Notes under the pieces: generated by a model | The model's database searches: none | Seen by the model: the letters and a program-made list of their open reading frames with translations, nothing else | Told to the model about the DNA's origin: nothing | Position numbers and translations under genes: made by a program | Shown: in pieces, positions 1 to 63,849 of the stretch | Position numbering within the stretch: position 1 is the first letter of the stretch | Layout: each line of letters opens with the position of its first letter | Assembly (NCBI GenBank): GCA_008632985.1 | Contig: QPGO01000253.1 | Span: 1 to 64,000 of the forward strand | Source of the DNA: Psammoneis japonica | Taxonomy: Eukaryota | Reading direction: 5' to 3' | DNA length: 64,000 nt

Positions 1-1569
1 TGAGGTGCAATGTGTTTTGCAGCAAATGAATGGACAATTTCGTGCCGTTCGGCTTCATCCACCACATCCAACAAGTCAAGTTTGTTGGTGAGGTCCCTGC
101 AGGAGCGGGTTGCAAATAGACTCAAAGCACTTGCCACATCCATTGTTCAACCAACATCCCCAGCTCCATCATCATTCTGGGATTCCGAAGAATTTCCGCC
201 AGGGCCGGATGATGTTGGATGCTAATTCCCCATTCTTTTGCCTTTCCATCGTGAAATTGAGAGCTGTTGTCATCACCATCACCATCACCACCACCAAACT
301 TCTTGCACTGTTGTTTGTGCTTACAATTGCTGATTGCATTCATGGCATCTTCAAACAAAAGTCTGTCAGCAAATGTGGGTGGGAGAGTTTTGTGGCGTGA
401 TGATCGTTCAGGTTTTCCAGGGTGCATTTCGACAGACCAGCTGCTGCTTCACCGTGGATTTTGAGTTTCTTGAGACATTCTCCAATGCCATCTTCTTTTC
501 TGGCAGACCAGCAAAACGTCCAGGGGAGCTCTTTAGATTGGTCAAAACGGAGACCACAGTGTGTGTCTTGTTTGGACATGACGCTGCCACGTGTGTTTGC
601 AAACCGGTCAAATTCTTGGGCTTCTTCAGTTCAAGCATCAAGCAGAGCTTCCACAGTGTTCCGGATTGCATCATTCTGAACATCATTTGATTTTGCAATC
701 ACCACATCTGCAGTTCCCCAAATGTTTTGACTGCTGTGCTCCAGGCCTGGGATTTTAACCAACAAAAGTGCCCTCTTTGGTTGCACATCCCCCCAAGAGC
801 AATTCGCTGACAACTTTTGTTTCCATGCTGCAAGCAGATCCAAGCTGGCACTCACACATCCAAGCAACCTTGCAGCTGTTTGCCAAAACCCTGCTGTGTT
901 TTCAACAACCAGGTGTTTTGCTCCAGAAGTGCCAGGAGTCTTGCAACGATCAATGGCTGAGGCATCATTTACAAAACAAGAGCTTTCCAGAGGCAAGACT
1001 TAAATTTTTTTCACATCTCAGATGCTGCCACACTCAAACAACACACAGCAACGTGCCTCATTTGCCCTCATTCAGGAGAGCAGAGCTGTTGCTCATGTTG
1101 CCCAAACTCCCAATCAATTTGCTTCCAGTTTGCTTGACCATGTTCTGCCAGGCATGCAGTGCATTCCCACCATTGCTGCTCCAACAATGTGCTGACATTC
1201 TCTAAAGTTTTGTCTGACTCAGTGATTTCTTCTTGAGCTCTCTCACAGATCTCTGTAAGTTTTCTCCATGGTTTTCATTGTTGTTGAGACAAAAAAACTA
1301 AAGCTGGACATTCAATGGACTCTCACTCAGGTCTGACTCCTTTGCATCCATCATGGCACAGGATGAGGCTGTGGGGGGCAAGGCACATGACAAACATGTT
1401 GTCAACAAGGGTTGTCATGAGTGTGCCAGCCAGCTTTTCTGGCATCATTGTGGCCCATGCTTCCAAGTCAGAACCACTCAGGCCACACTCCTCTGGAAAT
1501 GTGAGCAATGGTCATTTGAGAAACCTTTCATCAGATGTTCAGCAGCACTCAACAAATCATTTTGAGCCC

Positions 1570-2230
1570 ATGCTGGTCTCAACCATTGTCCACTCACGGC
1601 ATTCTTAAAAACCTCTCTTTGCAAGTCTTTTGCTGCCTTGTCATTTCTGGCACAGTGCTTGTCATTCCAAGCTCCTGGTTCTCACTGTGGTCCACATGCA
1701 AAATCTCTTTTCCACTGCCACACATGACAAGAGGACACACTGTTGACAGACAACCTTTTTTCCCTCCACACGTTGAGTTGCAGTGCACAGGAGAGCCATC
1801 CCACCAATGTGCACCATGTCAACAGAGCCACAGCAACCCACAAAACCAACCTTGGCATGCCCCTGCTTGATGGCTTCAATGGCTTCATCATCACAAAGCA
1901 TTTTTATGAGTGCATCTTTGACAGATGCCATTTTTGCACAGCAATCTTCAAATCTGTTTGCACTTGTTCTCACTGATGCCAGTGCTCAAATGACAAACCA
2001 GGTGAGCCACACTCTGGCTCATGTGGCACAAAGCTCCCAACAGCAGCAACTCAAGGTTGCAAACAGGTTGGTTGCAGCAGCCCATGTGCTGTGTCCCTTC
2101 CTGCCACTCCCCCAACCTTGGCTTGCAACAAAGTTTTGCATGTCTTCAAACAACTCAAAAGGAACTTGAAAAGCATGCCAGAACTCCTTGCAAAGCTTTT
2201 GATTTGCAGGGCTGGTCAAGTCACAAAGGT
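1570..2230 (-). pseudogene. Degenerate PIF/Harbinger-type DDE transposase fragment
   Basis: Motifs spread over several frames: KEFWHAFQVPFELF (FRrRFRvP), GFVGCCGSVDMVHI (GFPGCxGSxD first Asp), GKKGCLSTV...KEILHV, and VDNG near 1590. Confidence 0.6.
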
Positions 2231-5200
2231 TGGGTTGTTTCAACAAAAGACATGTTCTTCTCTTTGTCATTGAATCCAAACACACAATTGTCACAACATC
2301 CAGTCCCTGCAAATGCCAGCTCTGACAACAAATCCCTCCAGTCATCAGCCAGCCAAGGCATGTCATCTTCAAACAACTCACACTGGGTGCAAGGTGCCTC
2401 TTCTGCATGCAAGACAAAACTGGGCAGGAGTGCCTTTTCATGATTTGCAGATGATGGGTTCTCCTGCATGCTGCTGAGTGCACACTCCTTGAGCAGCAAC
2501 TGTGCTGAGGGGATGACATTCATTGTGAGATGCAAGTGTGATGTCACTTTCTTTGGCAGCAAATGAGCTGGTGAGCTGGACATGTGGATGACACAATGAC
2601 AATGAAATGATGGCAAAATGAGAAAAAAAAACAATGCAATCTGATTGGTCAAACCAAACATGAAAAAAATTCCACACTCTTGAGAGCCGTGCAAGGAAAG
2701 GGCCTTTTTCCATTTTTGAGAGACAAAAACAGTTTTTTTTGTGTGTTGTCACCCCGTGAGTGCATTTCTGTGTGGGAAACATGGCCAGTGAGGTTTGAAA
2801 AAACACAGAAATTTTTGCTTTGAATTTTTGTTTCTGTGTTTTGTGTCACAACAAGGTCCAGCCTGAGCAGCAGTGCTGGCACAGATGCAACACACCACAC
2901 ATTTTTGAGAGACACCCATGACCAAAACTTGCTTTTTTTGTGCTGCCACTTGCACTTTTGCACATCACTCACACAACACTTTAAGGCATTGACAATGGGA
3001 GTTGGCAACCTCTGGATCAAAGCCTTTGGAGACATCAACAAAGCACAATCTGTGTCATTTGCTGAGGCCAGTGGGAAAAAAGTGGGGTCACAATGCACTG
3101 GCATGGCTTCACAAAACATGCCACAAAGATGCCACACCATGCAGGCAGCACCTCCTGTTGCAGCCACCACACCTGCCAAAAAGGCTGTTGACAGTCAGCT
3201 GAGGTGACTCCTGTGCATGTCTTTGATGGTGCCGCAAGGCATGCAATGAAGAGTGCAGCAAAGACTGCACAAAACAACAAGATGGGGAAAGCAGAGGCTT
3301 GGATGGACAAGTGCACACAGAAAGGCAGAGCATGGCAGGTGACCTCATTTCTGAAGTTGATCAACACCAGTCATTGCAAAGAGCAAGAGATTTGCACAAT
3401 TCTGCCCCAGATGTCATTGCTTGCGTGGCAAAAGAGTGGGTGGTTGGCAACCCAGTCTTCTTTGAATGTGCTCCTTTTAAGGCTGAACACCAACCAGCCA
3501 AAATGGAGGCAGACGGTTCTTGCGCTGATGGCACAATGACTGAGGATGGTGATCCCATCACTCTGGGAGCAAAGGTTGTTTGCTTTAAGACAGGAGCAAC
3601 ATTTCTTGCAAAATGGAAAGTGCAACTCATTGCCTGCCCACTGTCTCATTGCTGCTTGTGACTTCAAATGCTGGGTGTTGACAGCAAATCTTCTTGGCTC
3701 AGACTGCAGCCAATGGATGGAGAACACAGGACATTCAAAAATCTTTCAAGAATGTCCTTTCCAGGCTTGCAGGTGCAGATTGGTTTGGAGAAGCTGCAGC
3801 AAGAGTTAATTGCTGAAATGTAAAATTCGTGAATTGCAGGTTTATTTGCAAAGGCAAATGGCTTGAATTTTTCCCCAATGAGCGCTTGTGCAAGGTCTCT
3901 GTGTGCCACATTTTCACTTCAGACAAGCAAGTGTTGTGGCTCTGACAACCACAGGTCTTTGGTTGACATGAACAACAAACCAGTCAGATTGTTGTCATTG
4001 CAAAGAGCTGTGTGAAGTTTTGTTTGTGAGGAAATGCAGTGCAATTGTCCAAAAAAAGGGCATTTTTGTTGAAGTCTTGTGGTGTGTTGGCATGAGTTGC
4101 CATCATGAGAAGGCAGTTTCCTTTGAGAATGATGGCACAGAAAGAATGCTGGCACTTTGAATTGCACCAGAAGATGTTGCATGCATTGCAAAAAGATGAA
4201 CTTGGAGGGTGACAAGGGTCGTGTCTTGACTTCTTGCCATGCAGCAATTGTGCAGGGATTTGGAATTTGTTGCAAATTTTGTCATGTTGTAAATTTTTCC
4301 CAGCAGGCTGATGGAGAACTGTGACAAGGCAGCAGCACCAATTTTGTGCACACTCCACCCTCTCAGTTGAAAACCACAATGACCACATTCTTGTGCTCCA
4401 TTCTCACTTGTCACTTTTTTGCATCAGGTCCCACACTGCCAACATTGCCTCTTGGCCAACCCTGTTGCAAGTGAGCAGACAACCAACTGTCCTTGACAAA
4501 CAAAAAAGGAACAAAGAGGTGGATGACCCAGCTAAAATGATGCAGCAGGTCTCAATTAAAAATGATGAAGAAAGTGCACTGGAAGTGATGGAGCTCATGG
4601 TGGACATTGCTGTGAGCATCACAGATGACTCAACCACAGGCATTGCCTCCAAAGACCCAGCCACAAAGAGTGCTGCAGAAAAAAACAGCAGCAAACAGTT
4701 GAAAGTTTGGGTTCACCAGTGAACAAAAATGAATGGTTGCAAACACCAAGGTTTGCAACTCCACTTGTTTTCTTGCTGTGCTGCAGCCACCATGTGACAC
4801 AGTCATTGATGCATCCATTTTGTGCTTTGCACACTCATGACATCAACCAGCTTTTGAAACAAGCCGTGATGTTGTCTGAATGGCACAAAGAGAACAACCA
4901 GTTGCAGGATGCCCTGCATTTTTGTTTGATTCAATCAAGTGGAGTCAGCAAGACCAAGATTGTGTGCCATGCCTGCAAGGAATTAGAGAAGAAGCAAAGG
5001 TGGCGGCACCCCCTGGTGCTCCCAAGTGAAATCCAGATGGGAAATTTGTTGCCTTCAGAAGCGCACAACACAAACTGACTTTCAAGGAGTTCTTGTAAAA
5101 AACACACCCATTGGCACAATAGTCTGTCAAGGCTTTGCAAAACTGGATCAACTGGGTGGTGGCCACAACTGTTGAAAAGGAGGAAATCACAGAAACTCCC

Positions 5201-8200
5201 CAATGTGACCATGTCTTTCTTTGCTTTGGCAAAGCACAGGCTCATTTGGACTCATTAGAGGAAACAAAGCAAGTGTGCTGCTTCATGTGATTGGAGTGCC
5301 AAAGATGCCAGCTTCTACAAAAACCTCAGAGTGTTGCTTTGTGGGGGTTTAGAGTGCAAATGGGGCCATGCCTTCTTTTGCCTGCTGGCATCCCAACACA
5401 TGTTCTACAACTTTGTAGGCCCGCCAACAGCTCCTTGGATGCTGCAGCCAACCCCAAAGCCAGTGGTCTCACCAGCAGCACCAGCAACCCAACAACTTTT
5501 TTTTCTGCATTTTCTTGCTGCCAACTCCCCCCAACATGTGCTCAGATGGCAAAGACAAAGCTGCCCATCTCCATGCCACCCTTTATGAAAAAGAAACAAG
5601 TCTGTGTTTCTGCACACTGCAAAAGCAACAACGCTCATCACATCAACTTTGCCATGATGCCATTGCCCCCATTGTCCCCAATGCCTCCCAATGACCACAC
5701 CTTTCTGCCAGCATTGTTGCCACTGCACCCATTGCACACCGCAGTGCCACCACTCCAGCTGTCATGCCCCATGCACAGGAGACCACCAGTGACCCAGAAG
5801 ACACCAACTTTTTTTCTTGAGGCACAGTGGCTGTTGTGCACAGTGGCTGATCTGCACTCCAGCCATTGCACAAAGATTGCTGCACACACAGCTCTGATGC
5901 AGCAATTTTGAAGAGAACAAATTGGGCCTGTTGAGTTTGATGCCCGCTGAGGTTGCCACTCTGATGGACACCAGCATGAGAGGTCACCACTCCTCTCTGA
6001 TGGGTGTCCGCATGGTTCAAGAGGCTTGTCAACAGCCAGATTCCTGGGGTGCTGTCCCATGAACTTGGAGAAGATCTCCTGCAGTCTGATTTCTGCTGTG
6101 CTGTGCACACATCCTCTGAATGGCTGCAGGCTGTCCTGACGTGGTGATGTTGAGTCTGTTGAAGCACACCAACCACTTCAAAGCTGCATTTTCACCCACC
6201 ACTCCACAGAGTCTTCTGTGTGTCATGGCAGCGGCATGTGAAATCCCACTGCAACATGATGGTGCGCCTGCACTGGTGATGGCTCCCAGATGGCACCAGT
6301 CAGGGCCAGATTCAGTGCACAAAGAACATGCCATGTGCTTCCAATGGAGTGGCTGTGCAGATTTTAGCTTGATTTGTCAGAGCTCTGCCACATGGTGTTG
6401 TTCATCTGACTGAACATGGCATTAAAGAGGACAATTGTTTGTGGCTTTTTCACATTGGCCAAGTTGGCATCATTGTGCCAACTGTCTTGGCCTGACTTTT
6501 GAGTGTGGGCCTGTGCTCCACTGGGACTGTCACCATGCATGCATCAAATTCAGTGATGGTTGGATTTGTGGTCCTGCTTTGCAGTCAGCAAAGGAGGGGC
6601 CAAGGGGCTGCTCAATGTGTGTGCTCTTGTTGTGTTTCATCCTTTGGTGCATTCCTCCATGGTGCCCTCTGGCTGCATTTCTGGAGTCAAAGAATCTGGT
6701 CATTTTGGCTGATGAACCAATTTCACTTCATGGCACTCATCCACACCTTTGAGGGTTTGGCAAGTCCCCCCCTGCACAGAAGCAGCTGCTGCATTGACAG
6801 AATGCCCAAAGTCAGAGGACAAGAGAGGAGGCTCCTGCACTGAAGGAAGACTTGAGCCCTTTGCAAGCATTTGCCCATGTCTGGCTTGTCCTCATCAGTG
6901 CTGCAGGCCCTCTCAAAATTGCACTCCACCCAACATGCTTGATCTTGACCAGCCACACCTGGAGCCATGATGAGTTGCAGGGCCAGAGTCTGGCTTTCCC
7001 AGCAACCTGCCAAGCAGGATGATGAGCCTGTTTCTGTCTGCAGGTGCAACCCAGCAGGACTTTTTCTTCCTGTTCCACAGCAGCACCATTGACATGCCAG
7101 AGCTCCTTGTCTGTCTTGTTTAATTTGCACGGCACACTCCAGCTGCCCTCAAAAGCACTGCCCTTCTGTCTGGTTTAGATGAAGCATCAGGGTGTCCATG
7201 CAGCCAGCTCATGATGCCTTCCTTTGCATCATCTTGAGGCAGGCAAGTTGGCTGTGATGTGGCTCATTTGCTGGTCACCACAGCTGCTTTTCCTTTCTTG
7301 CCTTGTTCATGACATCAGCCAACTCTGCCTTGTTCACACAAAGCTTGCAGCAGCACTTCTCCTTGACCTCTTTCAACACCACTGCATCAGCTTCAAAAAG
7401 CTGTTTGTGTTCTGGCTGTTTGTCACATGCATGCAAAATGATCTGCACTTCTGAGAGCTGTTGTTTGCTCCAGCAGCTGAGCTGATCTTTCTCAAAAAGA
7501 CTCCTTTCCATCCATTTGTGGTGTGTTTTTGACTGTCTTCAGCTCTCTCAACTTTCCTGCCAACTGAGCTCCACCAGTGGGAGAGGTGCACATCTGAGCA
7601 TGCTTGACTGGCTTAGATCTGACCAGAGTGTTGTGGTGAGTTTGTGGTTGTTGGCAGAGCTTTGTGCTTGTGGCTGCCATTGCTGTTGCTGCATTTGACA
7701 AGTCATGGAAAATGCCAAATGTCAAATGCTCATGTTTGAGAGCACTCAAGAATTGTGCCCAGGTTCTTCATGTTAGATTCTCTCTGTCAGATGCAGAGCA
7801 CAACATTTTTCACCAATGACAACACAATCAAGAATGGATGATGCACTTGTGTTGATTGCCACACACAACACATGTTGGTGTCTGCACACAAATGTTGAGC
7901 TTGCTGCCAACAACAAAAGTTGATGTTTGGCAAAAAAAGGGTGGGGTTCTGCTCCCCTGAGCAGTTGCTTTTTTTTGTTGTGTGGCAGCCACACGTTTGC
8001 AGACACCAGCACACTGCCACCACATCATGGATTTCTCCAGCAATCTCTCCATTGTTCACACTTGGGCATTTTTGGCAAAGTTGAGATTTGTCTCAGATGT
8101 TCCCACTGCATCTGCTTGGTGAGAGCTCACCCAATCCATTTTGCCTTTGTGCTCATCATTGTGTGCAAGCGAAGCTGGCAAGCCACTCATGTTGTGAAAT

Positions 8201-9699
8201 GCTGCTTGTGCAAAACTGCAATGTTGCAAAGCAACAGAGTCCCTCTGTCTCTCTTGTTGCCTTGTTGACTTGGATTTTCCTGATTTCCACCCTCTTTTGG
8301 TGACTGTCAACTCTGCCAAAGACAGTGGCAGCCATTTTAGAGACTGTGCCCAGCTCCCTTGGCCTGGAAATCAGGGGGGGTCTTCAGCATTGTTTGGGAC
8401 ATCAAGGCAGGCAGCAGCAGAAGCAGGGAGAGAAAACAAAGACTTGCTTTTGTGAGGATGGCATGAGCATGGTCAAGAAACTGCACACACAGAAGCAAGA
8501 AGCCAACTCAGTGCAGCCTTGCAGCTTTGGTGCCAGGTGGCAGTTCAAGAGTGCACATCATCATGTGTGCCTGGCCGCTGCTCTTGCAAGGCACCAAGAG
8601 CAGCAGTGGTGCTGGCCAGCTCCCAACTGCAAGAGCTCAGCCTCTTGCATTGCCAACTTAGAGCACTTTGTGGCAGAGTTGAAAATCAAAATGCTTTGGT
8701 CAATGTGCGCAGCATGGTGGCAGGAAGAAAGTGGGCAAGACAAGCCACTTAAAGTGGGCGAGACAAGCTGAGACAGTGGGGCAAGCAACAGCTGACAACG
8801 GCAATCCTTTGTGCTCAGAATGCCTTCACTTCACATTTTCTGTGTTGTGTTGCTGCCATCTTCTGCCAGAGTCTTGCTTTTTCATTTCAAGACTCCTTCA
8901 ATTTCTTGCAGGTGGACAAAGCAGTCTTGACAGAGTCATTGTCATCTTGTTGATGCTCAAACTTCAGCTCCAGGTTTTTGACATTGAGCCAGAACTGCAT
9001 TGATTTGTTCATGGCTTTGGCACATTGGGCATCATTGTCCCTCTTCCACAATGGCCTGACCAAGCTGATGTCATCTGCCCAAGATGTGGTTGTCACTGCT
9101 TCCTTTGCCAGTGTTTTCTTTGCAGCAGGTGCCTTGGACTTTGTCTGCTTTGGCTTGCAATCTGGTTGGTCTTGTTTTTGATTTTCTTTTTCAAGGATTC
9201 TCACTTTTTTGGCACTTCCTTCTTGGAGTCTTGTTTGTCTTTCCAGTTGTCATCAACACCCCAGGGTTGTCTTCCACAGTTTCTTTCATTTTTTGCTTTG
9301 TCAGGAAGAAGTGGCTCCAGCACCTGGGTTGAAGATTGAATCTTGATGGGCCGCAATGCTGTTGGCAGTGAGCCAGTTGGCAGACTTTGTGCCCAGCATG
9401 TGTGTGCACTCTGGGGTCAAGTCATTCACAACAACTTGCATGACTTTGATGCAGCTCTTTTTCTGAAAAGCCATGAAGCTTGGCCATGCCACCACTCCAC
9501 CCAATGCTGATGTGACACAGCAGCTGAGCAAGACTTGGTTTGATTCGGGGTTTTCAACTCTGTTTTTGTGAGAAGATGATGCAGAGTGATGGGACATGTG
9601 CCTTCTTGTTCAAGAAAGTGGTCAAGTTTTGCCACAAAGCTGCACTCTGTTCTGCCAATCACATGACTGCAGCAGAAGCACTGATGCTGGTGAAGCTCA

Positions 9700-12600
9700 T
9701 CCACACCCTTGCAACTCAAGCATCACCCAGGGCACTCGGCACAGTGGAGGATGAGTGGTGTTAAATGCAGCATGCTTGCAAACCAAGAATTGTCTTCTTT
9801 GCACTGATGTGCCACAGCTTCTCTCTGTTGAAGCTGAGCTTGACAATTGCAATGGACTTCCATGATGGTGTGAAGGGCTTCAGGACTCTTGAGCAGATCT
9901 TTGCAGTCAAAAGCAGAGTGCTTTCTGGCCCAACACACTCTTTTTTGAATTCAAGTCCCGGCATGGTCTGACTCTGGCAATCAAGAGTTCATGCATTGAC
10001 AGCATTTGTGTGCTCATGAACAGCCACCCAATGCACTCCCCCGATGAGTGGGCTGGCACAGGAGAGGGTTTCTTGCAATGGCAAAGTTGTGGCCTTCAAT
10101 GTCATCAAAAGAACCCTCAGGAGTTTGGCATCACAGTTTTGTTGCTGCTTCAAAATTGTGATCCTCGCCAATTGTCAGAAGTCAAGTCTGGCAGTGGGCA
10201 GTCCACTTTTCACTCAATGGAGGGCTCGTGCAATTGATCCCCACAGCAACACACTTGGGGCCTCTCATTTTTGAGCTTTCTTTCTGGAATTTCATCTGAA
10301 GCAAACTGTGCAAAGGTTCATTCCAGTTCTGGGTCCCATGTGCCAACCACACACTTTTCCCCCCAGCACAAGTTGAGTCATTGAAAGTGCTTGACACACT
10401 TCTTTGGCAACTGCTCTGAGTGTTTTTTGATGGAGATGCCATGATGAAAGCATTGCTGCAGATGTCAGCACAAGTGACCTTGTCCTTCAAATCCTTGTGC
10501 TCTTCTTCTTCATCTGATTGTGAGTGCTGTGGTGCTTGCTGGCAAGTTGGTTTAAAGGCTTGTGGTCTGTCAAACCAGCTGATCTCAGGAAGCAAGTGTT
10601 TGTGTTGTCACAGATGATGTCCATGTTTCGAAATTGCAAGGATGTGGTTCCTTCAATTCCAAGAGCAAAGTGCAACTTGTCCACCTCATTTCTGCTCCCT
10701 GCGATGATTCAAGAATGTTCCATGGCCTTACGTCAAGCTCGGTTGGAGTGTTGCCAAGTTGCCAAGGACAGTCAGAAACACCACAATGCAGAACATGACA
10801 TGCACATTGCTGAACTGGAACTTGAAGGCACAAAAAAAAATCCAAGGCTCAGGCAAAAATTCTTCAAAATTTGTGTTGTGCTGAGGAGACAAAGCAAGTC
10901 TTCCAGAAGTTCAACGCCTGCAAGACAAAAGGGGACTCCAGTGTTAAGACAATTCAAGTCCCTGCAAATCCAATCGAGAATCCAAAGACATGTGAAAATT
11001 GGACAACAGTTGATGCCCCAGAAGATGTGGCTGCAGCCTTGCAGTCAAGGAATCAATGTCACTTTGGTCAAGCTCACGGCACTCCACCAATGGTTCCTCC
11101 CTTGTCAGTCAATCTGGGTTGCAAAGGCAACACCATCATGGCAGAGCTCATTTTAAATGGAGAGCACAAGACCAGTCAATTGAATCTTGTGACTTCTTTG
11201 CTGATCCAGCACCTTTGGTGACGCACACCACCCGCAGTGCAGAGCCATCTCTCATCTGCTGCCTTGCTCTCCAAACTAAAGACGTGGTCCAAATCTACAT
11301 CCTCCACCTTGCTGAAATCAGGTTTGCATCTTGGACACTGGAAAGCACTGTGCACTCCTCATTCTCATGCTAAAGATCAAGATGCCCAAGGCAATCCATC
11401 ATCAAAGAAGGCACACCTGGATCAAGTTCAGGAAATGTTGTTCTCGATTTGCCTCAACCTCATCAACCACACTTTGAAGTGGGGCCATTTGCATGACCGT
11501 TGGAAAGACATTGTCAACATGATGATCTTTAAAGAACCAGGCAACAACAAAATCCTCTGGCTGTGAGTCATGCATGTGTGCAAAGTGGATTTTCAAATCA
11601 TTGCAAGTGTCGAACAATTGCAAAAATTGGCTCAGCACATGGAGAAGCATCAAATGTGCAACCCTGACATTTGCAGATGCTGCTCATTCTTGTCAGCCCA
11701 GACTCCACTTTTTCTTGAGAACCTGATGTTAGAAACATCACGAGCTTCTTGCAAGACTCTTTTGATGAGTGATGACGATTGCATCTCCTGTTGCGACAGA
11801 AATGCACCAGCTGTTGTTGGACCGTGTTCCCAAAGTGATGGAATGGACTCTCACATGGCAGAAGTTAACATGGCCACCCTGCACCACGCACGGCATTGGC
11901 TTTGGACCTTGTTGGGATCAGCTCAGCAGATTTGTTCTCATTCTGACAAACAACCCCTGCATGGCACTGCTGGACAAGGAAGCGGGAATTCTCTGTGGCA
12001 TTGGAGTGCTTCACGCAGCCGCTTTTTTGACATCTTTGATGCAAGAGCCATGGGACCACACTTTGAAACCCCTGGTGGCAGGTTTGTCATCCAAGTTTAC
12101 AACCCCAGATGTGCAGACGACATGTCCAAACAGGTCAACAACTTTCAAGCAAGCCCTCAACCTTCAGCACTTGATTTGTCCTTTTCTCTCCAACAGGACA
12201 ATCAACTTTGGTGTGATTTGCTGGATGCAGCTGGGCACAAACTTGAGTTGCCCAAGCATTCATTTCACGCGGTGGAATGGGATTTTACTGAGTGTGGCAA
12301 GCCACATGTCTGCCCTCACCATGACAACCTGGACATCCAAATCTTCTTGGCAGACCAGCCCACTTCCCGGTCCAGCAAACAACTTTCGGCATGTGCTCCA
12401 CACAAAATGCTTGGACACTGCATTGCTCCAATTGGCACCCAGAAGACTCAGTTACAGAAACTCCTCACCAAGAGTGATGCTGCCGCTCTCTTCCTTTGAT
12501 CCTGTCCTTTTGATCAGACAGAAACATGGAGGCACCACCACGAGTGTTGCCTGTCATTGATGACACACATGCTTCCAAATTCAACTTTTCAACCAAAAGA

Positions 12601-15462
12601 GCTTTTGACTGTCCAACAAAAGGCAATGCGAGTTGCATTTGCCAAATGCGGGTGCAATCAAAACACGAAACAACTTGTCCTGTGTGGTCCTCAATCTCTT
12701 GGTGGAGGCAGACATTTTGATTGTTGGATGTGAAACAAGGCATGGCTCAACTGCAACTGCCATTGAAACATTCCCGAGGCATCACAAACCTCAATTTGGG
12801 AGAAGATCAACCTTGCAAACTCTTGCACATTGCAGTCTCCTGGATCCAGCTGCACTTGGGAACAGGAGTGAGCTTCCTGTGGGACATTGACACCGCACTC
12901 CCACACATGGAATCTTGTTGGTTTGCTTCAGTCCGTTCATTTTTACACAGGATTCACAGCAAAGTTCACTTGTTGACACATTCTGCCCCCCCCCCCCCCC
13001 CCCCCTCCAACATGATGACAACCAGTGCATTGTGGATGTCGCACTTCAATCTCAACTCTTCTCTCACTGCGAAATCAGATGGATCAATTGCTGTTGCTTG
13101 TGCTTGCAGGTGCTGTCCTTCAGGAGAGCAGCACAAGTGCTTTGAACAATGTTGAACAGCAGAAACCAGGATCACAAGCTTGGACCATGTGGAAAAAGCT
13201 CTGTGCTTCCCTGTGTCATCCAGCATCACAGACACTGAAAGAACCTCTCAGCAATTGGCTGGTGCCACCTTCCAAGATGCGCATGCAGGCAACCACTTGT
13301 TTTTCTCCTTCGGAGGATCATCTGCACATCAGGTCACCCTCAGGGTGCAACACATTTCAAGTGAATGGCGCCAAAACCAACACCATCACAGAGTTGGAAA
13401 CAGCTCCAGTCCCCTCCAAGGAATCATTTCCGGCAGAGCATTCCACAACAGAAGACGGTCAATGGATGTTTGACTTGCCCCATGCTGCTTTGTTGGATCC
13501 ACCCCTTTCTCGGTGCTCCCAGATGCATTCCAAGACATGCTGCAATCATCACCTCTGTGGGAGGCAACGTTGTTTGAAGAACTTGAATTTCATGTGACCC
13601 CCAATGCACTGATCCACCATTTTTCTTTTAAGACATTGACTGCAGGGAGTGACGGTTCAGCCAATGAAGATGCCACCTTTGGTTGAACAATTGCACTCTC
13701 AGGAAGACAACCGTCGTCACACCAAGCAGAGGCACGCGGGACTCTCTCTGTCATCTGATTCATCTGCTGATTTCTGGAACATTGCCAAATGTGCAAGTTT
13801 CCCGATTTGGATGTGCATTGTGACAACAAAGCCTTGGTGTCTTGTCTGGAAAAGATTGCTCTTGCCCTTCTGGCTCCATCTCCTGAGGACCAATCTGACA
13901 ATGTCAGAGACTCTCACATCCGTCACCATGGAGCCAATGCCCTCACCTCTGACTGGGATGCTGCAAACAAGATTTTAAATTCTTGCACTGCAATGGAAGA
14001 ACTCTGCAAAACCAGCACATCCCCTCCTTCTCCACCAGCAAAATGGGTCAAAGGACATCAAGATGGACACTCCCCATTCCACGCACTTCCACTCAATGCA
14101 AGAGTGAACGCACAAGCTGACAGGCTCCTGGCTGGTGCTTTTCAAGGTCATTGCACTCAAGACACTTTTCAAAGGTCCTGTTCTTTCCTCACTGCCACTC
14201 TTGCTTGAGTCTGCAGGATGGCACGTTGACATCAAACTGCAAACAACAAGTTTGGCATGCTGCCACCACCCCGCCGCTTTTGGAGGAGCACATTCTTGAG
14301 CACAGTCAGTGGCATCCAGATGTGATCAACCTGACAGATTGGGATGTGCACACCACACTGATGAAATGGCATTCCAGGCAACATGTTGGAACAGTCAAGC
14401 TGGCTCACAACCTTCTCCCTGCCAACAAGACAGTCAACAGATGCAACTCCATCCAACCTCACCATTGTTTGCTCTGTGAGCATCCGATGGAAGATGGGGG
14501 TCATGTGCTGCAATGTCCACACAACAAGCCATGGTGCAGAAAGTTCCTGCAAAGTTTGCTGTGTTGTTGCAACCAGATCATTGACACCATGCCCACACTT
14601 CACAACTTTCTGTTGGCCTGTTCCAGCTCCAGGTGCTCCGCGCGGGTTTGATTCCCATCATTTGGAAATTTGTGCATTTGGCGCAATTGACTTTTTCCAA
14701 ACCCGTTTTTTGCCAAATCGAAGGGTGAGTGTGCACTTTGCATGCATTTTTGGGTGTACACTCACCTTTCGATTTTCGAAACGATCAAAATTGAAGGAGT
14801 CAATTGCGCCAAACTGCGCAGAAAATCGGCCTCTCACGTGATGAAAAGCAGATCACCTGGAGCTGGAACAGGCCTGTTGACTTCTGTCCAAGCATGGTTC
14901 AACGGTGAGATGGAATGCCCAGAGGATGTTGACTGCTGCAGCAGAGCCCTGTGGCACACTCAATTGGAAGTGGGATGGCAGCAAGTGTTTGGTGGATGGG
15001 CACTCCACTCTTTGGAACGTGATCCAATCATGATGTTTGTGCAACTCAGGCATTCTCCGCAAGCACCAAGAAGAGAACAAACAGCCACCAAATTGGACAG
15101 TGCAAACAAGGTCGTTTGCATGGAAACAATGGCGGAGTCTGTGGGAAGAGCACAACCATCATGCACGCGGACATGATGCAAACTCCAGGAAGTCATCTCA
15201 GCAACAAAAGATCAAAGCTGAGTTGACAGCTGTTTGCAACAAATGCCAAGAACATTTGGCTGAAGACCACGGTGTTCTCCTCAATTCAGTGGAAAAGCAC
15301 CAAGCATTTTCAATGACGGGCACTCAAAATTGGATTTCAATGGTCCGGCCTGGGCTGAAAGAAAGTCTCAAAGATGCCAAGAAGCTGGCACTTTGCAGCT
15401 CATGCACCATCACCAGTTGCTTCCATTGGGTGTCTCCTCAGGGAGGTGCCAATTCAGGCTGA
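9700..15462 (+). mobile_element. Decayed non-LTR retrotransposon pol (RT + RNase H + CCHC finger), resembling diatom Ambal-type LINEs
   Basis: RT region: RNQCHFGQAHGTP, RWKDIVNMMIFKEPG, GQGSG, ADD. RNase H: SDGS, HCDNKAL, WVKGHQD, NAQADRL. CCHC finger: CLLC-x8-HVLQC. C-terminal QLEVGWQQVFGG. Many stops and frameshifts; the 5' limit and an endonuclease domain are uncertain. Confidence 0.8.
14615..14874. mobile_element. 260-bp foldback MITE inserted in the LINE
   Basis: Perfect 21-bp TIRs GGCCTGTTCCAGCTCCAGGTG (14615-14635 / 14854-14874) flanked by TGTT on both sides. Inner inverted arms at 14677-14692/14798-14813 and 14715-14736/14754-14775. Removing it restores the LINE frame (TLHNFLLTSVQAWF). 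Confidence 0.92.
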
Positions 15463-16316
15463 TCGCACCAACTTCTGCCGCACCCCAGCAGGGTGCACCG
15501 GAGGTGTGGGTCAGCTGGTGCCGGTGTTGCTGGGCAAAGGTGTGGTGGCACTTTAAATTGGTTTTTTTTGGTTTAAAGGCTTCTGCTCCTTCTTTTCTTT
15601 TTCCTGTTTCACCCTTCTTGCAAGATCGATGAACCAAGATGTTTCTTGCTGGCAAGATTGGCCACAAGGTCATCTTCCATTTCAATGTCCAACTCTTTGT
15701 CTTTGTTTTTGTTGATGTTGGAGTCATCCATGTTGTTGTTGTTGTCATTTGTTTCTTGGTCTGCTGGTGTGAAGATGTTGTCTTGGGTGAAGCCATCGTC
15801 ACAGGTGTCTTCGTCACTTTGGCCATCAGTCATGTGTGATCTTGATCATTGACAACTGCTTCATCCTCTGATGGAGAACTGTCCTTGACTTTGCTCCTGG
15901 TGTTGTGCTCATGAGCTTGAGGAGAGGCATCCTTGGTGCACAGTTTCTGAGCAGAAGTTGTGCTGGCGTTCTTCGACATCGGCGCTTTTTTTGCCACCGC
16001 CTTCGGTGGCCTTGTCGGTTAGGCCGATGGGATTTTTCTGCTTTCCATTTTGTCCTTTACCCTTTTTTTCTTGGTGCCCTTGCGGGGCGTACCTTGATTC
16101 GTGTATCAGAGCTGCGGCGTTTGCATCCTGCCATGGTGCGATTTTTTTGCTTGGTGATTGTACGCACGTGGGAGTATGTAATGTCTCTCAATTTCCGGCA
16201 GCAACTAAATCGAGGGAAGGCACGTCCAGTAAGATAGATTGCTCTTTGGTCAGATGCTTTTGGTGTCGGTTCTTGTACAATTCAACCAGAAAAGTAAATG
16301 TGAATGGGATTTCTAG

Positions 16317-24083: not shown

Positions 24084-24117
24084 CGACACAATGATTGGCA
24101 GAAATTGTATTACGCTC

Positions 24118-26619: not shown

Positions 26620-26649
26620 TACATTGGACCTTTGGAGATGCTCTGATGT

Positions 26650-40088: not shown

Positions 40089-40110
40089 ATGGCTTTTGTT
40101 TTGGTTTGTT

Positions 40111-41070: not shown

Positions 41071-41074
41071 CACT

Positions 41075-44438: not shown

Positions 44439-44589
44439 GAGCCGCTTCATTGAGGAGTGTGTCGTCGGGTGTCGGAGGTCGGAGGTCGGAGTCGTCGTCA
44501 ATTCAAAAACTGAGCATACAATTACTTCGTGGCTTTTATGGTAATAAGTTACCCACGACTGGACTGGCTCGTGACCAGCCGAGGGGTCA

Positions 44590-58550: not shown

Positions 58551-58650
58551 ATTCTCTCAAGTTTCCAGACTTCTATCAGGTTCGCAAACAAGAAGCGCAC
58601 TTTTAACGTCAAACTACCTTTGACGCCATGGGCCGGCCATGCAAGCCCAT

Positions 58651-61600
58651 GGAGCGATTGTACAAACCATTTTCTGGTGGCCCTGTAGCGACTGGTATTA
58701 TCGCACATACGTCACTTTGTACCAGTCTCTACGTCAACATGTGCTTTGTCAAATCACATCATCAGCACGCACCACCGCTCACATGCGGTGTCGGGGCGGC
58801 ATCGACGATGACACAGTAACAAACAGAGAATGGGTGTCGGCAGTTGCACCAGCATCTTGTGGAAGACAGTGAAGATCCCTGTGGATTTAGCACTGTGTGC
58901 AATCGAGCGCATGAAAGCCTTGGAGTACGACGAAAGCGTCGCAAACAACACTGGCAGCGAGCAGGAGAGTTTTCGTGCTGCCGATGCCACTCAAGTGCCG
59001 CCGGCGCAGCGACTGAAGATTGCCTTTGATGCAAACTTGCTTGGCTACAAATTCCTTGGTGATCGATCTTCGTTTGATCCATGTTATGGTGTGTTTCACA
59101 TTGTGGAGGCCTTTTCAAACGAACTCGTCGACGGAGTCATTGGTGTGGACAACCCAACGTGCCGTCACCCATCAAAGCGGGCCACGTGCAGTCGCAGCAG
59201 TGATCGTGCCAAGGCAGCAATGCGCCTTGTAATTCAAAGAGCTAATCTGCAAACACTGCTGAGCCAACAAAACATTGAAAGCGCAGCAACTCATGCCGAG
59301 GAGGTTGACACCGTCCAGAAAAAAACATGCAGCCTTGAGAGAATGCTCGAACGTCGCTTCCCCGGCAATTTTCACGAGCGACTGCGTGGGCCAGTTAATG
59401 AGTGCAGTCCGCAAGGGAAGGGAAATGTGGAGTGCTTTGTGGCTCCATCTCAGGCAGACCCTTGCCTTGCAAAGCTTCTAGTGGACGGCAAGGTCGATGC
59501 CCTTGCAAGCGATGACTCGGATTTTCCAATGTGTGTTGGGCCAAATGGACGAGACCTGATGACAAAGGACATGCATGCAACAAAAACAAGAGAACCCATC
59601 AAGTCTTGCAGACTGGCCACCGGTCAACAGCGTATTGCAGACATGTTAGAAAAAAATTTGGCTCCTGAGTCACTGCATTCACCGTTCAAGCGTGTCAGAA
59701 AGAGCACAGAATTTGATGGCTGCACCCCAAAGGAAGGCCACGCAACATTCAGTGGAGTGGATGATCCCATGGTTCGTGTTTTGTCAGGCATGGTGGTTGG
59801 TTGTGATGCGTGCCCCAAGGGCGTCGCTGGCAGTGGCCCGGCCGCAGCTCGCGCATTGATGAAAAAGCATTGTGACAAGACCGGTGAAGCACTCCATGAC
59901 GCTCTTGCAGAGGACACATGTGCAATGAAGGGGGCAACTGTCAAGGACAAGGAGGCAGTGTTGACACTGGCAAAGTCAGTTTTGCATGAGAAAACTCACG
60001 ACGGTGGATACACACATGGGAAGGAACCGGCCATTCTGGAAGATTGCGACAAAGATTTCGCCTCGGAAGGAACTGGGATGGTGCAAGGACCGGCGATTGA
60101 AATGTGCAACGGGTGCACAGGTGAAAAGCATCCCTTCTTGTTGGCTGAGGGTGCTTGGAACTGTGCTGTGTGTCAATCTACCCTCTGCCAGTTTTGTCAC
60201 ATGGTGGAAAAGGATGAAGTGCCTGGTGGTGATGACAGAGTGCTGTGTTTGGCATGCGTGCGTGGAGAAATTGTTGGCATGGACAGCGGAAAAGATGAAA
60301 AGGAAATGCGCAAGGAACTTGCTGCTCGGGGCACTCATGTCGTAGCCTCTGCGACATGTGTGGAGGTCCACAGTCTCTGGGAGGATCTTCAAGATGGGCC
60401 ACTCGACCATTTTGAAAAAGACATTGACAGCGTTTTGTGTCCCCTCCGGAAGACCAAGGCACTCCATCCGTCGCAACCAGATTTTGACCGAAAGAAAACT
60501 GTGCCCGTGGAAAACTTGCACGAATTGATTGGAGATGAAGACTTGCCTTTGTCGCTCGTTGTGGGTTTCGCACACATCCTTGCATCGTTCACTGAGATGC
60601 CACCACGTCCCAAAGGTCAGAAACTGTCGTGCAGGCATGTTCTTCCAAAAAACATTGTGGAAATTGCAAACAATTCCAGAGTCCATGAGGGGCATCGGAT
60701 GTGTTCGAGAGCCATTCGACATGCAGAGGACAGTGGCACACCTGACATCCTTCTGGGGAATCTGACTCTTGCAACTTGCGAAGGAAAAGTCTGTGTTGTT
60801 CTAAGCAATGAGATCCTTGCTTCCTTCAAGACTGTGAAGCATCTGGGTTCCACTGCATTCAATGGAGATGAGCTCATTTCGACTTCATGCCCGTGTCGAG
60901 TGGGATGCACGAACGACAAGGTCGGCAATGAGAATGGACTCGGCGAGTCACGTGCAGCATGCACGCATTGCTTTGGGAGGATGACTCAATTTAGCGACCT
61001 CATGCATCGCAGCAATGGAACAATGTCGAAATGGGCACTTGTCAGCTTGCGGAGTCGCTTGAGAAAGGGGGGTTCTGAATGTTCATTGGACAGCAACGCG
61101 AAACGGCAGTTGAGAGACGACACAGTTCTCCTGGTTGAATCCACCGGCAAGCAACCTCCAATCTTGAAGGCAGATGACACGTTGCTTGATTTGTTGAATG
61201 ATTGTGCATCTACAACAGACTTGAAAAGGCTGTCGCCCAAGGAGGCGAAGACTCGTGACCTCGGTCTTTTGCGAGAAAAAGCGAAGTGCAAGAGTCCGGC
61301 TGCGAGATGAGAAAAACGATCAATGGAGCGTAATGACGACACTGCAGCAAATGATGCATCGGCAACATCAGGCGCTCCAGAGCCAATGCCATCCTGCACC
61401 TTCGGCCCAGACAGAATCGCATCGGAGATTAGAAACACACCAAGGGGCACGGCAACTCCTGAAGAGTGCAAGGCGGATGTCGTTGCCATGAGAGCAATTT
61501 CAATGTTGTTTGGTTCGGAAACTTTCAAATCGCTTCATCCAAAGAGCCACACCGAAAAGATCAAGGAAAAAAAGATGCCATCTGGGTTTGCATTGTGTCT

Positions 61601-63849
61601 TGATCGTTCTGAGAATGACACTCACCGTGATGATGTTGTTGATTACAGTGAACAGCATGAGGAGGCAACTTCAGCAATGCGGCAGTTGGAATCTCTGTCA
61701 GTGGAGCATTCAGAGAGGCGCGGCCGAGTGCACAAGAGAGCCAGAGACTCAGAGAAGCGTCGACGACCAACAAAGATTTGTGGCCCATTGTCAGAAGTTG
61801 GCAACTCATGTGGTGCTGCTAGTCTCGTCAAAGCGAAACGACCATGGCAATCCGTGTCCACCACCAGCGACACCCAAGCCAATGAGAAAGCTGGGAAATG
61901 TTGTTGTCACAAAGAGTGCAGCAACAACGATGCAAATTACAATGGCAAGTTCAAAATGCATTGAGGATCTGGTGCTCACACTGCTGATTGCATCGTTGCT
62001 GACAACTGCGAAACGATGCTGTTTCGATTGCTTTGGTGCAGGACAATTTGCCTGAATTGCAGATCACCCACCAGTGCTCCCTGGCAAACCCAGCATCAAT
62101 CATTTGAAAACTTACAGAAAAAAGCAGTGGGTTCGTCGGGAGACTGCTGATCATCTTGGGTTCGGATGGGCGGGTGCTGATCACCTCAAACAGCTTCAAC
62201 CATGCGATCAGCACGAAATGGAGTGCACAAAGTTGGTGACTCTTGATGTGACGGTGCCAAAATCTGATGGCATGACAGCGACGGAAAAGGTGACCGTTGA
62301 CCCTTTTTTGGCCCCGGCACCTCTCAGTGCTTTGAGTTTCAACACGCCAACAAAGGGCACTCGCGCGTCCAGCGGAAATGGCACAGAACATGAAATCCTG
62401 CGGCACGTGTTGAACATGAGCAAACGGGAAGCTTCATTGACGCCGCAAATGCAAATTGCTCTTGCAAAGGAGCAGCTTCTGAATGGTGTGGACCGTGACA
62501 AAGAGAACAAACAACCAGAAGAGTTGGGGTGTGGGGACGAGATGAATTCGAAGGAGTCCAAGCCACCCAAAATCAATCTGTTCGATTTGAGTCCGAGTGA
62601 AGTCAAACGACGGACGGGATTTGAAGACTTGAAGCACCTGTTGAGCTGCAGCATTGTTTGTTGTGAGGGCAACTTGGACAAGATGGTAGAGACTGCAACG
62701 TGCTTGACATTCTTGGAGGAATTGATTCTCATGTACGAGCACACGCACGGTCGGACTCGCTCGCATTGGGAAGACATTGAAAAGGATTGGGGTGCCAACT
62801 GCAGGACCTTGCAAAAGGTGATTGATCACCGTCTGCAAAAAGAACTGGAGTGTCGGGAGAGATGGCCGATGCATGCCTCCTGTGCCGAAGACGCCAAGTT
62901 TCGTGATGAGAGATGGAATCAGCACTTCAGTCCGGTCGATGGACATCGTGTCATCATGCATGACGGAACGAATGTCCCGCTTCTTGATCCAAGCTCAGGC
63001 GATTTAAATCGAGCGCTTCACAATGTCCACCATGACATGTGTTGTGCAAAGGCTGGTGCAGCTGTGCAGCTGTGCAATTGGATTCTCGGCTTGCCGCTGG
63101 TGACGGGACACTGCGACGATGATCAGCTAATCAGATTCAGCAAGATGCTCGAATTGCAAAAGAACTTTGCAGACAACGACCCAGTTTCAGCTGGCGGCCA
63201 TGGCAAAAATGCAGCAATTGAAGAATTTCTGAACATGTTCGACAAAGGTCATCACATGCTTCTGGAAGCAAAAAGGCTGGGTCAACGTTGCTTGCAACCG
63301 ACAAAGTCGATTCTTTGATGGGCGGTGATGCAACCCTTGTTCAGCATCTGTGGCAGTGGTTGGATCAGGCAATGAGCGTGGCGTGAAGCGTTGCAAACTG
63401 TCTTGGATGCTCAAGCGAGGAATGCAAGACAAGCTGTGCAACGTTGATCGGCTTTGTGATGTTTGGGAGGCATGGAGCTTCCGCGTCAATTTCATGCACG
63501 AAGGCTTCCAGTGAAGCACGACATTCTGGTGCATGCGATCAGATGCTGCGCTCCACTTGCAGTGTTTTGTGTGGGGAACGAACAACAACAAAGTCTCTAA
63601 CCCAGTTCTCTGTGTGACCCACCGCCTGCTCACTCTAAGAGGGCCCCGGTGTCAGCACCCACCGTACGGCAAACTGAGTCTGTTGTCACTGTCAGTGCCG
63701 TGGTGGTGCTGCACCGGTGCTCACCGTATGTCCGTCGCCATCAGATTTGTGACGTAGGCATTCAGTACAAAGAAGACGTAACATGTACGATAATACCAGG
63801 CCAACGTGCTTTTTACGGGGCCACCAGAAAATGGAAATACAATCGCTCC
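58651..63849 (+). mobile_element. Full-length ISL2EU/PHIS-like DNA transposon (5199 bp)
   Basis: Termini GGAGCGATTGTA...TACAATCGCTCC; imperfect TIRs 58651-58736 and 63750-63849; AT on both flanks (58649-50, 63850-51); internal DDE_Tnp_4 transposase. Confidence 0.9.
58830..63514 (+). pseudogene. Mutated transposon polyprotein: XPG/FEN1-like nuclease - Cys finger - SAP-like - SWIM - THAP-like - HTH - DDE transposase; intron 61945-62041
   Basis: Nuclease: MGV, IAFDAN, VDNP..HPSKRAT, VAPSQADP..L...GKVDALASDDSDF, GCD..PKGVAGSGP. SWIM: CPC...CTH. THAP-like: CCHKEC...CDQH. Transposase: RRTGF, IMHDGTNVP, TGHCDD, DKG, NERGVKRCK. Broken by two TGA codons (61308, 62053) and two 1-nt deletions near 63301-63340. 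Confidence 0.82.

Follow-up and report, generated by a model that had tools for sequence, protein, structure and literature searches.

TpA-poor blocks beside TpA-normal genes in a Psammoneis japonica contig: the footprint of a proposed A:T-to-G:C process on transposon-derived DNA

To our knowledge, fungal repeat-induced point mutation (RIP) and the decay of 5-methylcytosine (5mC), both of which are C>T processes, are the sole established routes by which eukaryotes mutate transposons to death. Here, we analyze a 64-kb stretch of DNA (contig QPGO01000253.1 of Psammoneis japonica, positions 1 to 64,000; hereafter, the window) in which five discrete blocks, called B1 to B5, have lost nearly all of their TpA dinucleotides. 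The blocks make up 46% of the window, and one of them, B5, is the interior of a complete DNA transposon. We propose that the blocks record a locally targeted change of 5'-TA-3' to TG or CA.

The closest described system is that of Bigelowiella natans, for which a 2026 preprint by Mettrop et al. (bioRxiv 10.64898/2026.01.13.699255) reports A:T>G:C hypermutation, at TpA only, of integrated viral and other foreign DNA and proposes that it serves in defense. In the B. natans mutation-accumulation lines reported there, 231 of 302 new nuclear point mutations fell in two integrated viral regions, and 230 of these 231 were A>G or T>C changes, all at TpA and in some lines only. The same source (10.64898/2026.01.13.699255) describes 124 clusters in the 95-Mb genome that are poor in TpA and rich in CpA plus TpG, and it finds the TpA-poor genes enriched in transposase and reverse-transcriptase domains. 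It proposes an ADAT2-like protein as the enzyme; DNA activity of ADAT2 is reported, as cited in the preprint, for the amphioxus and trypanosome enzymes only. An earlier reading of the window, made from sequence alone (the sequence-only reading), knew of no description of such a change as a genome defense, a statement that this preprint supersedes. In our full-text literature searches, the Bigelowiella preprint alone was relevant, and nothing was found for diatoms. The accessible text of a Phaeodactylum mutation-accumulation paper (PMC6604790) reports ordinary context effects and no such pattern.

The window resembles B. natans in that only TpA is affected, TpG or CpA results according to the strand, the affected DNA forms discrete regions of foreign origin with ordinary composition elsewhere, and TpA depletion is accompanied by a gain of CpA and TpG. 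It differs in host (a chlorarachniophyte there, a diatom-like stramenopile here), in depth (a TpA observed/expected ratio, or O/E, of ∼0.06 here versus 0.45 in the giant-virus region of B. natans), and in extent (46% of a 64-kb window versus 124 clusters in 95 Mb). The identified targets here are DNA transposons, and new mutations were seen to arise in bursts during clonal growth in B. natans, whereas the window holds a footprint in sequence only. We infer that the two are the same kind of process. Judged against the accessible text of the preprint, three features reported below are new: a rule set by the 3' neighbor, terminal inverted repeats that are spared, and a loss of TpA that is uncoupled from CpG decay.

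Other known systems share single features with the window. Fungal RIP also leaves dense, dinucleotide-context transitions in mobile or foreign DNA, sharp regional limits, and dead, compositionally odd elements, but it changes C:G to T:A, mainly at CpA, and creates TpA and stop codons, whereas the change described here is from A:T to G:C at TpA and destroys both. RIP is triggered by duplication before meiosis; the blocks of the window show no similarity to one another, and in a public DNA run, parts of them are multicopy and other parts near single copy. The decay of 5mC at CpG likewise turns a palindromic pyrimidine-purine step into TpG/CpA and acts in the blocks too (CpG O/E down to 0.04), but it cannot remove TpA, and its extent varies 20-fold among TpA-erased blocks. 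The TadA/ADAT enzymes, ADAR, and engineered adenine base editors have in common with the window an A>G outcome and a T or U favored before the target A, but the natural substrate of TadA/ADAT and ADAR is RNA, whereas here both strands of class II DNA elements are hit. APOBEC3 and AID/Pol-eta are examples of host-driven local hypermutation against mobile DNA or at one locus; they proceed by C deamination on single-stranded DNA and are strand biased, whereas the change here affects A:T pairs at TpA in DNA transposons without bias.

TpA-poor blocks in the window

The window has a G+C content of 48.6% and an overall TpA O/E of 0.33. Block limits were drawn from the positions of TA and from 250-bp counts of TA, CG, and TG/CA. 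Pooled, the blocks contain 121 TpA in 29,757 bp, or 4.07 per kb (O/E 0.06). In the 33,912 bp of the four genic stretches, there are 1,256 to 1,257, or 37 per kb (O/E 0.55), a difference with a chi-square of 814 (P = 6e-179). The two distributions do not touch: 1-kb windows hold 1 to 11 TpA in blocks (n = 27) and 14 to 57 in genes (n = 33). These results confirm that the TpA-poor blocks are real and well past chance expectation. The sequence-only reading was therefore right to set TpA-poor blocks beside TpA-normal genes, and its spot counts (4 TpA in 1-600, 4 in 58981-59340, and 6 in 16321-16440) are exact.

The loss of TpA is matched by a gain in TpG and CpA, which have O/E values of 1.72 to 1.73 in blocks versus 1.11 to 1.20 in genes, and CpG is also reduced (pooled O/E of 0.34 in blocks and 1.01 in genes). 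Apart from TpA, TpG, CpA, and CpG, every dinucleotide shifts by no more than ∼0.2 O/E between blocks and genes. The A/T dinucleotides illustrate this, with block and gene values of 1.22 and 1.15 for AA, 0.82 and 0.94 for AT, and 1.27 and 1.16 for TT, against 0.06 and 0.55 for TA. By this measure, the loss is restricted to TpA, and A or T in the remaining contexts is unaffected. The ratios for TpA, TpG, and CpA agree with the earlier claim that the polarity is opposite to that of RIP and that C>T processes are insufficient.

Coding potential is altered as well. Per kb and strand, TAA occurs 2.0 times in blocks versus 8.2 in genes and TAG 1.0 versus 7.3, a four- to sevenfold decrease that leaves the blocks without the premature-stop feature of RIP; TGA occurs 23.6 times in blocks and 19.2 in genes. 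Open reading frames (ORFs) are dense in all six frames of the blocks because TAA and TAG are scarce, a crowding that had been noticed in the sequence-only reading. Tyr makes up 0.3 to 0.5% of residues in block ORFs versus 1.6 to 4.0% in genes, and Cys and His are higher in the blocks. The count of only 4 Tyr in an 826-amino-acid (aa) ORF of B5 (58830-61307) was accurate.

The sequence of the blocks was compared with a public DNA run kept as contigs (X1; word depth of ∼61.6), which contains 95% of the sampled words of 22001-31500. On 12001-31500, X1 contigs cover genes and blocks at equal depth and agree with the window. A single contig of 10.9 kb (15524-26383), with 4 differences, crosses two block borders, leading from the end of B1 through all of the intervening genes and 1.1 kb into B2. 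Over B2, X1 contigs have a depth of 61 to 67, and two of them (26590-27599 and 27571-28482) show 3 and 1 differences, respectively. Reads with TA at block sites, the artifact that the sequence-only reading had wished to see checked, are thus not what X1 provides, as its contigs reproduce the blocks at normal depth. Contigs so long and so accurate come from accurate reads, in which modified bases are not miscalled, and this is strong, if not independent, evidence that the block sequence is real. In the single-copy block contigs (∼4.1 kb), all 8 differences between the window and X1 are transitions at CpG-type or TpA-type steps, and at position 27309, the window has TA where an X1 contig has TG, the one hint of mutations newly arising.

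Direction of the change in the B5 transposon

B5 is hosted by a complete DNA transposon of 5.2 kb (58648-63855, + strand) with inverted ends at 58648-58708 and 63852-63783. Its TpA-erased interior (58735-63750) has a CpG content close to normal (O/E 0.7 to 0.8). The 826-aa open frame (58830-61307, +) has a weak XPG-I/PIN-like nuclease match, and its Tyr positions have become Cys or His; a second open frame (62056-63315, +; Tyr 0.5%) belongs to the same element protein and is homologous to the C-terminal part of a 1,377-aa relative, P0121. P0121 aligns over 58830-61955 and 62056-62976 with 47% identity (622/1,310), and relative to it, the B5 frame has two in-frame TGA stops and one frameshift. 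The motif DKGH, which the sequence-only reading took for an altered DKGY, lies past the point at which all of the relatives obtained end. The element protein is ∼1,380 aa long, with the weak XPG-I/PIN-like match near the N terminus only and without a further Pfam family; long relatives likewise gave only a weak XPG_I match in Pfam. Eleven relatives of the protein, 42 to 54% identical, come from metagenomes or assemblies. Protein-database searches for paralogues in the same genome returned only 2 and 9 relatives, at 42 to 54% identity, and tblastn with the 11 relatives found no B5-family copies in B1. The element, with its terminal inverted repeats, may belong to a DNA transposon family that has yet to be classified.

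Six metagenome contigs that carry relatives of the B5 protein (L001 to L006) have gene-like TpA O/E values of 0.49 to 0.67, with CpG O/E values between 0.07 and 1.08. Because all six have ordinary TpA, the B5 family is not inherently TpA-poor, which speaks against the objection, already raised in the sequence-only reading, that the family itself might lack this dinucleotide. In L004, taken over the whole locus, CpG O/E is 0.07 and TpA O/E is 0.49, and the corresponding values in L006 are 0.42 and 0.59. On the composition of these two contigs, the B5 family in other hosts appears to undergo CpG (methylation) decay without TpA loss.

The direction of change was counted at the DNA level from codon-anchored alignments with relatives of the B5 protein. 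Of 326 pooled sites with TA in a relative, 5% are TA in the window, 24% are TG, and 18% are CA, while each of the remaining 15 dinucleotides is retained at 22 to 40% in the same comparison. Counted as distinct window positions, 238 have TA in at least one relative, and the window reads TA at 6 of them, TG at 52, CA at 41, and another dinucleotide at 139. With TA in at least two relatives, 64 positions read TA 4 times, TG 19, CA 13, and other 28; with TA in at least three, 19 positions read TA twice, TG 6 times, CA 5, and other 6.

The same direction is seen in the protein. The 28 aligned Tyr residues of P0121 correspond in the window to 5 Tyr, 12 Cys, 7 His, 2 Trp, 1 Phe, and 1 Ser, and where both long relatives have Tyr (10 columns), the window has 5 Cys, 3 His, and 2 Tyr. 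Across all 11 relatives there are 7 consensus-Tyr columns, of which the window keeps 2; each relative keeps 2 to 7 of 3 to 8 and shows Cys or His at such columns 0 or 1 times. Only 3 of 18 consensus-Ile columns still have Ile in the window, and the others have Val, Thr, Leu, Met, or Ala instead, as predicted for ATA>ATG/ACA and (T)AT>(T)GT. Overall, Tyr content is 1.4 to 2.7% in the relatives and 0.5% in the window. Since conserved residues were destroyed, these changes indicate mutation and not selection for composition. Together, the alignments support the view that TpA was lost through a TA>TG/CA change in this lineage.

B2 provides a second identified target, the C-terminal two-thirds of a hAT-like transposase (27467-28656, +), located by tblastn of homologues whose residues ∼220 to 650 (of 620 to 700 aa) map there. 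The ORF at 27763-28695 finds 456 homologues by phmmer and matches the C-terminal 250 residues of these 620- to 700-aa proteins. Nine of the homologues were scanned in Pfam without a match. The best of the homologues, P0132, adjoins hAT transposases in Atlas (feature score of 0.96, structural TM of 0.59 to 0.60), and its neighbors there include Dimer_Tnp_hAT and zf-BED clusters. The sequence-only reading had recognized a hAT motif in which YID has become CID, and the alignment bears this out, with Tyr in 23 of 23 aligned homologues and Cys in the window. The 150 hAT-like representatives listed were also searched for further hypermutated copies; of the 115 that are at least 150 aa long, 5 have Tyr below 0.7%, none with an excess of Cys or His. 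A transposon origin is thus shown for two blocks, B2 and B5.

Under the genetic code, no sense codon becomes a stop codon through TA>TG/CA; as far as stops are concerned, the change only removes TAA and TAG. This is why a dead element can keep an 826-aa open frame, and the frames that are interrupted are broken by TGA. The elements are killed by missense change (Tyr to Cys or His; Ile to Val, Thr, or Met) while long frames persist.

Context, borders, and the proposed agent

The TpA dinucleotides that remain in the blocks are not a random sample. Relative to genic frequency, survival is 0.64 for TTAA, 0.39 for CTAA/TTAG, 0.16 for CTAG, and 0.145 for GTAA/TTAC; five further classes lie at 0.018 to 0.068, and ATAT is at 0. 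A model with four parameters, in which the A of each strand survives independently according to its 3' base, gives survival values of 0.81 for a 3' A, 0.42 for G, 0.21 for C, and 0.06 for T. It fits all 10 tetranucleotide classes (fitted/observed counts of 27.4/27, 31.6/36, 25.1/22, 13.2/10, 7.6/7, 6.7/6, 4.3/7, 2.8/3, 2.0/3, and 0.3/0). Susceptibility therefore follows the order TAT > TAC > TAG >> TAA. Written for thymine as the target, the same rule is (A>G>C>>T)TA, and because TA is palindromic, the pattern can also be read in mirror image, with the effect due to the base that lies two positions 5' of the A. We place the effect 3' of the A because TGA and ATG are scarcely gained in B2 and B3 (0.1 to 1.7 and 4.5 to 5.1 per kb, respectively), where TGT, TGC, and TGG are gained at 12 to 27 per kb.

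Both strands are equally hit. Polarized sites comprise 52 TG and 41 CA (P = 0.30; runs z of 0.24), and a search for strand-coordinated tracts found none, the order of TG and CA being random in each block (runs z of −1.3 to +0.65).

TA density regains the genic level within tens of bases at each block border, and the terminal inverted repeats of the B5 element are spared by the hypermutation. The left repeat with its subterminal DNA (58648-58734, +) has 7 TpA in 87 bp, the right one (63751-63855, −) has 8 in ∼100 bp, and the TA-containing words of the two ends are common to both. Just inside the left end, erasure is less complete than in the core (8 TpA in 58735-59400). At the right end of B2, TpA is back from 29739, and the multicopy element in X1 stops near 29830-29850, which is suggestive of an end spared like those of B5.

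CpG decay is a second process, colocated with the loss of TpA but independent of it. CpG O/E is lowest in most of B1 (0.04 to 0.1) and in B4 (0.04 to 0.14), intermediate in B3 and the remainder of B1 (0.17 to 0.36), and highest in B2 and B5 (0.5 to 0.8). While CpG O/E spans 0.04 to 0.8, TpA O/E in 1-kb windows stays at 0.01 to 0.14 throughout. Removal of TpA is near saturation, at ∼90 to 95%. B5 has lost >90% of its TpA with CpG O/E still at 0.7 to 0.8, and for this reason, the TpA process must be much faster than CpG decay.

We consider it likely that a locally targeted process, acting at the DNA level on transposon-derived DNA, changes TA to TG or CA, presumably by means of a host enzyme recruited to silenced foreign DNA. 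A:T pairs of 5'-TA-3' would be converted to G:C, leaving TG or CA according to the strand that is hit. The change is placed in DNA because the two identified targets are cut-and-paste DNA transposons. A host enzyme would be brought to DNA already silenced as foreign, and the recruiting signal would be chromatin or small RNA over the body or the transcribed part of the element, and not duplication. A signal over the element body is preferred to homology between copies because the terminal repeats are spared, the borders are sharp, and the ends are as repeated as the interior. Our first choice of agent, made tentatively, is a DNA adenine deaminase acting at TA, with A deaminated to inosine and read as G. 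It is favored by the clean A>G outcome, by a requirement for a 5' T like that of polynucleotide adenosine deaminases, and by the proposal of the same activity in the Bigelowiella preprint.

Several points weigh against this interpretation. The deaminase step is pure conjecture. In the context model, genic tetranucleotide frequencies stand in for the ancestral ones, and a polarized test of whether hits fell on the strand with the more favored 3' base yielded 40 versus 31, which is not significant. Dinucleotides other than TA, TG, and CA fill 139 of the 238 relative-TA positions, a large class because overall identity to the relatives is low (29 to 49%), which makes the polarized counts noisy. 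The hAT-like ORF offers only 2 consensus-Tyr columns, and Pfam gave no element type for B1, B3, and B4. X1 is possibly the assembly's own data and hence is not independent proof against a chemistry artifact. Finally, 18 of the 40 window-X1 differences listed are CpG-type and 7 are TpA-type, and with only 7 of 40 at TpA, ongoing activity of the process is not demonstrated.

A true analogue of RIP, in which sequence duplication acts as the trigger through homology sensing and only the chemistry is reversed, would account for the targeting in another way. B2 and B5 are transposons, which are normally multicopy, and with 1,382 X1 contigs placed at ≥85% likeness on the 19.5 kb of 12001-31500, parts of 12001-15900 in B1 reach summed depths of 90 to 15,333 versus the baseline of 61.6. 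The right end of B2 is multicopy in X1 as well, so that a repeated status is established for parts of two blocks, B1 and B2. However, 26301-28250 in B2 has a summed depth of 77 to 88 at ≥85% likeness, which is close to single copy. Comparison of the window with itself by blastn and tblastx detected no similarity between the five blocks; its only hits were two pairs, one a tandem pair of 117 nucleotides (nt) within B2 and the other, of 67 nt, at 40108-40277 and outside the blocks. In addition, the inverted-repeat ends of B5 are spared although they are as repeated as its interior, and the main target in B. natans, as the preprint describes it, is a single-copy viral insert that is hit during clonal growth. 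We therefore regard a duplication trigger as unlikely. The sequence-only reading had proposed an active mutator of repeats, and of this proposal, the TA>TG/CA loss in transposon DNA stands, whereas repetition as the trigger is conjectural.

The chemical target could instead be thymine, which is the main alternative to deamination of adenine. Hydroxymethyluracil in dinoflagellates prefers TpA, and formyluracil mispairs with G. If the T of TpA were enzymatically modified in silenced DNA, for example by oxidation to a base of this type, it would at times pair with G. TpA would then decay to CpA/TpG much as 5-methyl-CpG does to TpG/CpA, and its loss would be the by-product of an epigenetic mark and not the work of a dedicated mutator. 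Sequence cannot tell whether A or its paired T is attacked, and the context rule is written equally well in its thymine form. The blocks also show CpG decay and hence marked chromatin, and the equality of strands is as expected of a symmetric mark on a palindromic step. Nevertheless, the full-text literature matches listed on 5-hydroxymethyluracil concern dinoflagellates, and none reports it in diatoms; the accessible portion of PMC6313786 makes no mention of a TpA preference. TpA is nearly gone even in B5, where CpG is near normal, which would demand a very mutagenic mark. On balance, decay of a thymine mark seems to us improbable, and we retain a recruited enzyme acting on TA as the preferred explanation.

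Error-prone patch repair of methylated DNA by a Pol-eta-like polymerase, with its WA>WG signature, had been named as a candidate in the sequence-only reading. In its favor are the A>G change, the status of TA as one of two WA motifs, the CpG decay of the blocks, which could initiate repair patches, and the presence in the window of a gene for a REV1-like Y-family polymerase, although this is probably a coincidence. The candidate is not supported by the other WA motif, as AA is undepleted in the blocks, with an O/E slightly above that of genes, and AA in relatives becomes AG in the window at 14%, equal to the 14% of the reverse change from AG to AA. The loss of TpA does not track the loss of CpG, and transversions are scarce among copies (3 to 10 per class versus 34 to 53 for transitions). 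We consider this origin very improbable.

It is equally hard to maintain that no mutational process took place and that the blocks reflect an inherently TA-avoiding composition, selection, or an artifact of assembly, base calling, or polishing. Foreign DNA can inherit an extreme composition, and the possible origin of X1 in the assembly's own data leaves room for an artifact. Yet the relatives of B5 are TpA-normal, conserved Tyr residues have been destroyed, unlike what selection would do, and five unrelated blocks share one signature with borders sharp to tens of bases. X1 contigs of up to 10.9 kb, at a depth of ∼61 and with 4 differences, run unbroken from gene into block, and X1 departs from the window at a few sites within blocks, so that the two are not one identical string.

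ADAR prefers a 3' G. RNA editing of element transcripts by an enzyme of the ADAR or ADAT type, followed by copying back into DNA, can be given hardly any weight, since both identified targets are cut-and-paste elements without an RNA intermediate, the strands are equally hit, and the 3' preference observed (T>C>G>>A) is unlike the 3' G of ADAR. What speaks for it is the preference of such enzymes for T or U before the edited A (bioRxiv 10.64898/2026.01.13.699255).

Remaining blocks, neighboring genes, and significance

B1 (1-16019) is TpA-erased, heavily CpG-poor, degenerate DNA that continues beyond the start of the window. Its O/E per kb is 0.01 to 0.13 for TpA and 0.04 to 0.36 for CpG, and at its right limit (16020), TA density rises abruptly to a gene-like value. 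Within it, 14600-14760 and 15250-15900 contain very high-copy words in X1 (summed depths of 15,333 and 1,092), and many contig joints there skip 54 to 113 nt, which suggests a short satellite-like or highly abundant repeat. B2 (∼25210-29739) is TpA-erased with moderate loss of CpG (O/E 0.5 to 0.67). A tandem duplication of 117 nt in B2 (26342-26458/26509-26625; 93% identical) is the sole sizeable DNA repeat in the window. Over 28080-28482, a second X1 contig at half depth (34.5 versus ∼63) has 31 differences and 11 gap letters in ∼400 nt, compared with 4 differences over 10.9 kb of mostly genic sequence, and looks like a strongly diverged second allele. B3 (∼40800-42120) is 1.3 kb long and has 3 TpA and a CpG O/E of 0.26, and B4 (∼44551-47440) is 2.9 kb long with O/E values of 0.04 to 0.07 for TpA and 0.04 to 0.14 for CpG. 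Terminal repeats were sought for B2, B3, and B4, and none were found.

The Pfam scan covered 124 stop-to-stop ORFs of at least 100 aa that overlap blocks. Block DNA gave no family above the cutoff; two weak XPG_I matches were seen (3227-3658 and 58812-61307). In B1, where no family exceeded the gathering score, the best subthreshold matches were XPG_I at 3227-3658 (E = 2e-4) and CT47 at 4312-4719 (E = 3e-4), and the ORFs of B3 and of B4 gave no match. One strong hit, to ABM (antibiotic biosynthesis monooxygenase-like) at 40354-41073, was rejected as block content and assigned to the host gene that adjoins B3. This gene (− strand) has two ABM domains; TA density falls from ∼40800, which is within the ABM stop-to-stop frame but probably upstream of the true start.

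The genic stretch at 16020-25209 served as an unaffected control (TpA O/E 0.33 to 0.73, CpG O/E 0.9 to 1.2) and contains REV1-like, nitronate monooxygenase, and AlkB-like genes by Pfam. Here, an X1 contig has 26 additional bases after position 23230, at full depth, and three transversions between the window and X1 are clustered at 21940-21999; both features lie in intergenic DNA and are differences between assembly and run or a strain difference. By Pfam, the genes between the blocks encode a REV1-like polymerase, nitronate monooxygenase, an AlkB-like oxygenase, RAD23, a PWI protein, and the largest subunit of RNA polymerase III. A 551-aa exon of the last gene (RPC1) has its best named match in the diatom Mediolabrus comicus, with 76% identity over 72% of the query, and further named eukaryotes among the matches listed reach 51 to 54%; this one gene thus points to a diatom or a near relative as the source.

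Three DNA repair genes lie amid the blocks: the REV1-like gene (BRCT plus Y-family polymerase; 16317-20108, −), the gene for an AlkB-like 2OG-Fe(II) oxygenase (24118-25183, −), and RAD23 (31656-32942, −). Their nearness is probably a coincidence; translesion synthesis and base repair are candidate steps for fixing the mutations. A second run, X2, listed as "DNA?", behaves like cDNA in that one of its contigs skips exactly 75 nt of the REV1-like gene (17808-17882), an intron. Long unbroken exons and this single 75-nt intron in the REV1-like gene fit an intron-poor genome. X2 leaves 12001-15250 and 25651-28900 uncovered while covering the flanking genes, and it was not used as evidence either way.

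A bolder form of our interpretation, which we offer as speculative, is that diatom-like algae possess a dedicated, silencing-guided editor that acts on 5'-TA followed by a base other than A, converts A:T to G:C on both strands, outpaces CpG decay, and spares terminal repeats. If this is true, then TpA editing, with the Bigelowiella case taken into account, would be an immune mechanism of ancient or recurrent origin across the SAR (stramenopile-alveolate-rhizarian) supergroup. A second, unrelated lineage in which the change has reached saturation in DNA transposons suggests that the mechanism is widespread in marine protists. TpA-erased elements evade Pfam and repeat finders and inflate ORF predictions, and indices of TpA, TpG, and CpA could serve, in any genome, to map the targets of a TpA-erasing defense. 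The enzyme behind the process would be a naturally occurring A:T>G:C editor of DNA, directed at adenine (or thymine) and with a defined trinucleotide specificity.

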